A stretch of DNA of 64,000 bases, from assembly GCF_003334765.1 (NCBI RefSeq), contig NZ_QOWT01000003.1; one strand, 5' to 3'. The stretch comes from Escherichia coli (lineage in GTDB: Bacteria > Pseudomonadota > Gammaproteobacteria > Enterobacterales > Enterobacteriaceae). A program made the position numbers. Shown in pieces: positions 49,201 to 52,200 of this stretch. The first letter of the stretch is position 1, and every line of letters starts with the position of its first letter.

Positions 49201-52200
49201 GTGGTTATCTACGCTTTTAACAAACGATTGATGGAATATTTTATGAAAGGGAAATCTGCATTAACTCTTCTGCTCGCTGGTATATTTTCGTGCGGCACAT
49301 GCCAGGCGACAGGGGCAGAAGTGACGAGTGAATCTGTATTTAACATTCTTAATTCCACGGGGGCAGCAACAGATAAAAGTTATTTATCGTTAAATCCAGA
49401 TAAGTATCCTAATTATCGTCTTCTGATTCACTCAGCCAAATTACAAAATGAAATAAAGAGCCACTATACCAAAGACGAAATTCAAGGATTGCTAACATTA
49501 ACAGAAAACACACGAAAGTTAACGTTGACGGAGAAACCCTGGGGAACGTTTATTCTTGCTTCTACTTTCGAAGATGACAAAACAGCGGCAGAAACCCACT
49601 ATGATGCTGTCTGGTTGAGGGATAGTTTATGGGGCTATATGGCATTAGTATCAGATCAGGGAAATAGTGTAGCCGCAAAAAAGGTTCTGCTCACCCTGTG
49701 GGATTATATGTCTACGCCCGACCAGATTAAGCGGATGCAGGACGTCATTAGCAACCCAAAACGACTGGATGGAATTCCCGTGCAAATGAATGCTGTGCAT
49801 ATCCGATTTGACAGCAACTCCCCCGTGATGGCAGATGTGCAGGAAGAAGGCAAGCCGCAGCTGTGGAACCATAAACAAAATGATGCTTTAGGTCTTTACC
49901 TTGATCTCCTTATACAAGCAATCAACACTGGTACTATTAACGCTGAAGATTGGCAAAAAGGTGACCGATTAAAGTCGGTTGCGCTGCTGATTGCTTATCT
50001 GGATAAAGCCAATTTCTATGTTATGGAAGATTCCTGAGCATGGGAAGAAGATGCCCGATTAAACACATCTTCCGTTGCACTGGTGACCTCTGGACTGGAA
50101 CGTTTGTCAAACCTACTCTCGAAGAAAGACTCTGTTTTTGTCTCTGATTTACTACGCGAAGCTAAAGTCAATGAACTGGATGAAACTCTTTCAACAACGA
50201 GGTTGAACCACCTCATAGATAAAGGTTATGAAAGAATAACGTTACAGCTTGATTTAGGGGGAGAATCCCCAGGTTATCTGGAAAAAGATAAACATTACAG
50301 AGAAGCCGATGCGGCTTTACTTAATGTTATTTATCCTACAAATCTTTCAAAGATAAACACCAGAAGAAAAGAGCAAGTTCTAAAAATAGTTAAAAAACTA
50401 GCAGGTCCGTATGGTATAAAAAGATACGAGAAGGATAATTATCAGTCGGCAAATTTTTGGTTCAATGATATTAAAACCGATACCGATCAAAATTCGCATG
50501 CAAAAAGAGAAAAGAGCTTCATTCCATCAACAGAAGCAGAATGGTTTTTTGACTCATGGTATGCAAAATCAGCAGCAATTGTTTATAAAGAATCAAGAAA
50601 AGAAGAGTATTTGAATGACTCAGTACAATTTATGAATAGATCATTGGCCCAAATAACAGGCGAGAATATGATTGGTGCAAATGGCAGGAGCGTACCAGAA
50701 ATGGCACTTCCCGAAAGCTATAACTATATCCACAAGTCGGGAACTTTGCATGAAGCGCCAAGCCCTATCATTCCGCTAAATTGGTCGAAAGCTTCAATGA
50801 CTCTCATGTTGAAAGAGATGTCCAACCTTATCAATGATGAGGGAATTAAATAGTTTTCATAATGAGTTACAGCACAACGTTGGGTATTGACTGAGCAAGA
50901 TGAACGACAAGGACAACGACATCAGCCTTATGAGGAGCAAGAAAATGAAAGCAAATTCGAAAACGATCAGAAGGATGAAAGTTAATGTTCGGTCTGAGGA
51001 CAGTAAATCGAAACACTCATACGTTTGAAACCACTTTTCAAAATTGGAAAGAAAATGGCGAAGATGTTGCATTATTAATGCCCGAATTTAGTGCTAAATG
51101 GCTACCGATAGCAGAAGAGAGTGGCAGCTGGTCTGGATGGGTATTGCTTGGAGAAATATTTCCCTTAATTTCATCTGAGCTCGCTGGGATGGCTTTAATG
51201 CCAGAAACGGAAAGGTTAATAGGGGAATGCCTCAGTTTATCCAGTTCCCCGTTAAATCTAAAGCATCCTGAACTAAAATATAATCGTTTGCGCGTAGGTA
51301 AAGTATTTGATGGAGTATTGAGCCCTGCTCAACCACTAATAAGAATATGGACAGGGGAATTGAATCTTTGGTTAGATAAAGTCACAGTCTGCCAATACGG
51401 AAACGCTCCAGCGTTAGACAAAAAATCGTTATATTGCTCCATTCATTTTGTAATTGGATTTAGTAAAACATGTTACAGAAGTCTTGTTGATATTGAAGTT
51501 GGTGATGTTTTATTAATCTCAAATAATTTGGCTTATGCGGTTGTTTATAATACAAAAATTTGTGATTTAATTTATCCAGAGGAGTTAAAAATGGCTGATC
51601 ATTTTGAGTACGAGGAAGATTTTGAAACAGATGATTTTGATATCAAAAAAAACGAGAGTGAGATTTATGATGAAAATGACGATCAGATGATTAATAGTTT
51701 TGAAGACTTGCCTGTAAAAATTGAGTTTGTTCTTGGTAAGAAAATAATGAATCTATATGAAATAGACGAACTCTGTGCAAAAAGAATAATATCTCTGCTT
51801 TCTGAATCTGAGAAAAATATAGAAATACGTGTAAATGGCGCGCTAACTGGCTATGGCGAACTTGTTGAAGTGGATGATAAATTGGGCGTAGAGATTCATT
51901 CTTGGTTATCAGGGCATAATAATGTCAAATAGCATTTCGCTGATAGCTATACTATCATTATTTACACTATTGCCGTTTATAATAGCATCCGGGACATATT
52001 TTATTAAATTCTCGATTGTTTTTGTTATTGTCCGAAACGCGCTGGGGCTTCAGCAAGTGCCATCAAATATGACACTTAATGGGGTTGCTTTGCTATTGTC
52101 AATGTTTGTAATGATGCCGGTTGGGAAGGAAATATATTATAACAGTCAGAATGAGAATCTTTCATTCAATAATGTAGCGTCGGTTGTTAATTTTGTTGAG

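Follow-up and report, generated by a model that had tools for sequence, protein, structure and literature searches.

A glycine-to-stop change in pkgA underlies the ygeQ/ygeP pair beside glyU in Escherichia coli

Are the two reading frames that follow a tRNA gene in this Escherichia coli sequence, separated by an in-frame TGA, the halves of one broken gene, and if so what broke it and what was lost? The window (the whole 64,000-nt stretch of DNA analyzed here; the tRNA gene and the disrupted gene with its parts lie on its + strand) carries glyU, a tRNA-Gly(CCC) gene, at 49014..49087 (ARAGORN; Rfam tRNA, 71.6 bits; annotated as glyU, b2864, in matching genomes). This gene is the left neighbor of the disrupted gene and the insertion site of the ETT2 island, which is degraded in most E. 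coli (PMC4700944). The two reading frames, 49201..50037 and 50083..50853, have the limits given in the original prediction and share a frame, (50083-49201) mod 3 being 0. Translation of 49243-50853 from the ATG at 49243 gives 536 codons with a sole internal stop, at codon 265. This TGA occupies 50035..50037, in the context GAA GAT TCC TGA GCA TGG GAA GAA GAT; it had been placed 3 nt too far along, at 50038-50040, which is the next codon, GCA.

Intact strains carry an uninterrupted gene at the same locus, its 536-aa product annotated in E. coli as 'glycoside hydrolase family 15 protein'. The orthologue from strain OkiPb01716 (WP_000676938.1, 536 aa), encoded between glyU and ETT2 genes, aligns over its full length. 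The window gene differs from that allele at 7 of 1611 nt: four synonymous changes, two conservative replacements (Q117E and V178I) and one nonsense change, GGA to TGA. Apart from this stop codon the comparison revealed no second lesion; the lack of further decay may mean that the allele is young or that some constraint persists, seven differences being too few to decide. A database search gave ~120 homologues among the matches listed, nearly all of 490-610 aa; they span the site of the stop and none is naturally split. The TGA is therefore a real internal stop and, as proposed, a nonsense mutation splitting one gene.

The codon that it replaced is not the one expected. A TGG (Trp) ancestor had been suggested, along with a comparison of orthologues to look for it, and the intact E. 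coli alleles show GGA instead. In the DNA alignment, intact and O157:H7 alleles have GGA (Gly) at codon 265, where the window and a K-12 derivative have TGA; the stop is thus a G>T transversion at 50035 rather than a mutated TGG. Trp ancestry is rejected on three counts, namely GGA in these alleles, G at this base in 2392 E. coli genomes and Gly in 25 of 25 diverse aligned homologues. The Trp of the local motif (S-G-A-W-E-E) is an intact codon two positions 3′ of the stop.

Allele counts were made in 5426 complete E. coli genomes with 55-nt megablast queries that had the variable base at their center, each 28-nt seed being required to include that base. The exact 55-mer with T at 50035 occurs in 945 genomes and that with G in 2392, so that, of the 3337 genomes that either query matched, 28% have the TGA allele; the 945 include K-12 laboratory derivatives (e.g. 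MG1655, J53, JM109 and NEB10-beta), and the count overstates natural frequency. In ~2100 genomes neither query matched, and those sampled match at the tRNA gene only; a 2-kb query matched 5414 of the 5426, at least at the tRNA gene. Annotation across the matches alternates between a single 'glycoside hydrolase family 15 protein' in many and 'protein YgeQ' plus 'hypothetical protein' in others. We assume from the identical flanks that the TGA allele has a single origin. A sequencing or assembly error in the window, for which nothing speaks beyond the general possibility, is next to inconceivable, because the identical 55-mer was recovered in 945 independently assembled complete genomes, MG1655 among them. 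Transposase genes of IS1 (in one match) and IS421 (in two) are also listed under matches annotated 'protein YgeQ'.

UGA is also the selenocysteine codon, and a full-length selenoprotein might be made if a downstream bacterial SECIS hairpin recoded it, as in genes such as fdhF, which likewise have an in-frame UGA within a long reading frame. A modest hairpin (-12.5 kcal/mol) can indeed be drawn 3′ of the stop, but its 10-nt loop (CCCGAUUAAA) lacks a GGUC-type apical loop, and strains with the GGA allele have the same downstream sequence. The search for a SECIS element that accompanied the original prediction as a suggestion was made with Rfam covariance models over 48900-51000 at E <= 10; it returned the tRNA and noise only and no SECIS family, while the same search of K-12 fdhF, the positive control, placed SECIS_2 exactly at the known UGA (87.1 bits, E = 6e-19). 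Unlike the fdhF type of gene, this one has Gly and not Cys as the ancestral residue, and Cys or Sec occurs in 0 of the 25 homologues. Only three selenoproteins are known in E. coli, and all of them are formate dehydrogenases. Recoding is hardly credible on these grounds, and from the sequence evidence we regard selenocysteine at codon 265 as excluded. Folding energy was dropped as a criterion: the 60 nt after the TGA are no stabler than shuffles (z = -0.04), a weak test alone, and it was given no weight because the genuine fdhF SECIS also scores z = +0.09.

The lesion had been linked tentatively to the annotated K-12 fragments ygeQ (b2863) and ygeP (b2862), and it does underlie them: MG1655 and DH1 carry the identical TGA allele, and DH1, a K-12 derivative, matches the window gene exactly over its first 1100 nt. 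The 5′ fragment, 49243..50037 (264 codons plus the TGA), is ygeQ. PGAP calls it 'protein YgeQ' (WP_000676919.1) in near-identical genomes, and in MG1655 the same 264 codons are listed as protein-coding and annotated 'putative lipoprotein YgeQ'. The 3′ fragment, 50083..50853, is the full-length equivalent of the pseudogene ygeP, whose MG1655 start, 46 nt past the end of ygeQ, corresponds to 50083 in the window and to the start of the second reading frame in our ORF list. PGAP annotates this 3′ half as a 249-aa 'hypothetical protein' (WP_000067509.1) with a TTG start at 50104.

The K-12 locus differs in its 3′ part. There IS2H, with an ETT2 deletion next to it, cuts ygeP short after ~300 nt, whereas the window gene extends to its natural stop at 50853. 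The K-12 match to the window ends at 50379 (divergence point 50379/50380); since the 3′ part of the window is full, the window carries the K-12 allele yet is not K-12 itself. The IS2 insertion that cuts off ygeP in K-12 is a further step of decay within the TGA lineage. The truncated K-12 ygeP is joined to orgA/ygeO remnants.

The label 'ygeQ-like' in the original prediction points to the right K-12 gene but undersells the locus, the gene being pkgA in the ETT2 literature (PMC3977695). In O157:H7 Sakai, ECs3736/pkgA ('phosphorylase kinase and glucoamylase', homologue b2863) and ECs3737 (homologue b2862) were placed at the end of the ETT2 island (PMC3977695), and EC042_3075 of EAEC 042 is an intact pkgA for which the same homology was noted (PMC2808357). 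The window gene is this gene, likewise located at the glyU end of the island, and we refer to the whole disrupted gene, 49243..50853 (536 codons, stop at codon 265), as pkgA, encoding a GH15-like, phosphorylase-kinase/glucoamylase-like glycosidase. A literature text search for 'ygeQ' yielded incidental mentions only, one of which places it among stress-responsive uncharacterized genes (PMC9501238).

Homologues of PkgA were found in E. albertii (76% identity), Yersinia enterocolitica (60%), Commensalibacter, Elusimicrobiota, Bifidobacterium, Bdellovibrionales and others. Family assignment by profile is faint: the Pfam GH15 family PF00723 matches residues 94-401 weakly (E = 2.9e-5), and NCBIfam gives only TIGR01577, whose 15 bits fall far short of its cut-off of 821. 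By sequence, no solved structures were found other than the glucoamylase-like domains of phosphorylase kinase (PhK) alpha and beta, whose 'DFG[IV]WE' aligns to 'DSGAWEE' of PkgA with the same Gly present. A confident AF2 model built from the alignment (pLDDT 87.8, pTM 0.89) predicts an (alpha/alpha)6 barrel; Foldseek matches it best to PhK beta (8jfk_B, E = 1e-9), to the GH15 structures 5z3a, an isomaltose glucohydrolase (1e-8), and 7c24, and to glucoamylases such as 1ayx (1e-7). PkgA thus resembles GH15 enzymes (glucoamylase, glucodextranase, isomaltose glucohydrolase) and the PhK alpha/beta domains in its modeled barrel and in the aligned W-E-E segment, but it is very distant from their solved structures (10-17% identity).

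All 25 of the diverse homologues aligned (37-76% identity) share G265, W267, E268 and E269 without exception, and three further Glu residues, E341, E431 and E491, are likewise invariant. The W267-E268-E269 codons lie at 50041..50049, separated from the stop by one codon. The Glu that follows Trp in this motif is presumably the GH15 general acid, equivalent to Glu179 of Aspergillus niger glucoamylase, and we treat it as a candidate assignment. Biochemical data on an inverting alpha-glucosidase activity were looked for, and none were found for PkgA.

The N-terminus of PkgA (MKGKSALTLLLAGIFSC; window 49243..49308) reads as a Sec- or lipoprotein-type signal sequence, with a lipobox-like I-F-S-C17 (MKGKSALTLLLAGIFSCGTCQA). 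Many homologues also have signal or lipobox N-termini. In comparison with the GH15 and PhK domains, this feature suggests that PkgA is located in the periplasm or at the surface. A role as an ETT2 effector has been speculated for pkgA (PMC3977695), and the same proposal was made for EC042_3075 (PMC2808357). The Yersinia and Commensalibacter homologues, the two neighborhoods examined, have no T3SS genes nearby; together with the Sec/lipoprotein-type N-terminus this makes the effector idea a poor fit and argues against it, a mild caution on the published proposal. The Commensalibacter homologue lies close to a GH32 glycosidase gene.

What, then, does the stop do? The locus is very probably a young pseudogene of pkgA, formed when the G>T change at 50035 arose in a lineage that includes K-12 and the window and inactivated the enzyme, as part of ETT2 attrition. 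As we reconstruct it, pkgA would have been one gene, its product a GH15-like glycosidase that was either secreted or a lipoprotein; among solved structures the PhK alpha/beta domains are its nearest relatives. With Gly265 (GGA) changed to UGA, translation would end at codon 265, and the product would be the 264-residue YgeQ, roughly the first half of the modeled (alpha/alpha)6 barrel, lacking W-E-E and everything beyond. The first possible restarts 3′ of the stop are 50083 (GTG) and 50104 (TTG), and no good Shine-Dalgarno sequence was found 5′ of either. Without a start codon that has a convincing ribosome-binding site the 3′ part would go untranslated, and a product started there would also be without W-E-E. 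Because the motif sits between the stop and the first downstream start, neither fragment encodes it. With W-E-E and half of the barrel gone, the enzyme would be inactivated; the sequence and the model agree in predicting a loss of PkgA function.

Two ways in which the split gene might still be useful deserve weighing. One is that the split itself is functional, either through readthrough that gives a useful full-length enzyme or through assembly of separately made fragments. Of the stop codons UGA is the leakiest in E. coli, above all in K-12; the window keeps an intact 3′ part with no second lesion, and PGAP calls CDSs in both halves. Readthrough by tRNA-Trp would however put Trp at the invariant Gly, beside the putative catalytic motif, and fragments made separately would lack W-E-E, its codons falling between the stop and the restarts at 50083 and 50104, neither of which is preceded by a Shine-Dalgarno sequence. 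In K-12, moreover, IS2 has removed most of the 3′ part, so that selection does not maintain it. Among the ~120 matches listed, none is a naturally split homologue. We consider a functional split very improbable.

The other, only marginally less improbable, is that the 264-residue YgeQ fragment was kept as a lipoprotein that has an independent function, the stop being adaptive and not neutral decay. The fragment keeps the signal/lipobox N-terminus, bears the lipoprotein annotation in MG1655 and is among the stress-responsive genes mentioned above, and its allele is frequent. K-12 laboratory derivatives swell that frequency (945 genomes, 28% of 3337), however, and a single clonal lineage could account for it. 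Judging from the model, a fragment with only half of the (alpha/alpha)6 barrel would probably fail to fold. The whole island is deleted in some relatives that share the glyU-side junction, and no evidence of an activity of YgeQ was found. Partial UGA readthrough in the K-12 lineage (giving PkgA with Trp265) and a separate role for YgeQ, taken jointly, have in our estimate a slim chance of being true. If either were, the common TGA allele would represent a regulated or neo-functional state instead of a dead gene.

Decay of pkgA remains by far the better account: loss of the enzyme through an ordinary nonsense mutation is in keeping with the mutational attrition already documented for ETT2. That the annotated ygeQ/ygeP pair is a disrupted pkgA was already known, and the significance of documenting the exact lesion behind this long-annotated K-12 pair is slight. 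The small additions made here are the exact codon change (GGA>TGA, Gly265), its independence from the O157 lesion, and the Sec/lipoprotein-type N-terminus together with homologue contexts outside T3SS. The ygeQ CDS of MG1655 and the 249-aa PGAP CDS are probably annotation artifacts of a single pseudogene; YgeQ and the 249-aa 'hypothetical protein' would be better marked together as one pseudogene of the pkgA locus.

The O157:H7 gene has a different lesion, a 5-bp deletion (ATCCG) at the window equivalent of 49801-49805, near position 2379 of the O157:H7 locus sequence, and is annotated 'frameshifted'. Sakai has ECs3736 and ECs3737 because of this deletion and not the TGA. The deletion was found in 297 complete genomes, including EDL933. 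By sequence comparison, pkgA appears to have been inactivated independently at least twice, by the TGA and by the O157:H7 deletion.

On its 3′ side, pkgA is followed in the window by a 3′ remnant of eivJ (SpaN/EivJ family, lacking the N-terminus) at 50866-50985 and then by epaO (YscQ/HrcQ family) at 50945-51932, which PGAP flags as frameshifted in a near-identical strain. Homology of the window to O157 stops at ~50866, and the genes that follow pkgA in O157:H7 (a GhoT/OrtT-family toxin gene, a helix-turn-helix gene and sctC) are absent from the window. The helix-turn-helix gene 3′ of O157:H7 pkgA has been listed as eivF (PMC3977695).

On its glyU side, 78 bp just 3′ of the tRNA gene are missing from the window and from K-12 and are present in strains with intact pkgA; the junction in the window is at 49097-49098, and the extra 78 bp are positions 1602-1679 of the OkiPb01716 locus sequence. 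In strain Z1323CEC0013 the 78-bp segment lies between perfect TTCGCC direct repeats, which suggests that the loss was a deletion between short repeats. The deletion junction occurs in ~1026 of 5426 genomes. Scans of the glyU-pkgA spacer for promoter and terminator consensus in the window and one intact strain found nothing and are uninformative as to promoter loss by the 78-bp deletion.

Strict linkage of the TGA to the 78-bp deletion was considered and rejected, as Z1323CEC0013 has both the TGA and the 78 bp, and an O6:H16 strain has the junction without the gene. In this strain, 2011EL-1370-2, an IS1B element comes next after glyU, and yqeG after that; pkgA is deleted along with all of the ETT2 island, and the K-12-type 78-bp deletion junction is retained. 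Z1323CEC0013 has in addition, at positions 2400-2530 of its locus, unrelated DNA before a second, partial copy of the 3′ end of glyU (ATTCCCTTCGCCCGCTCCA), with no tRNA annotated there; this looks like the integration of another element at glyU that left an att-like repeat.
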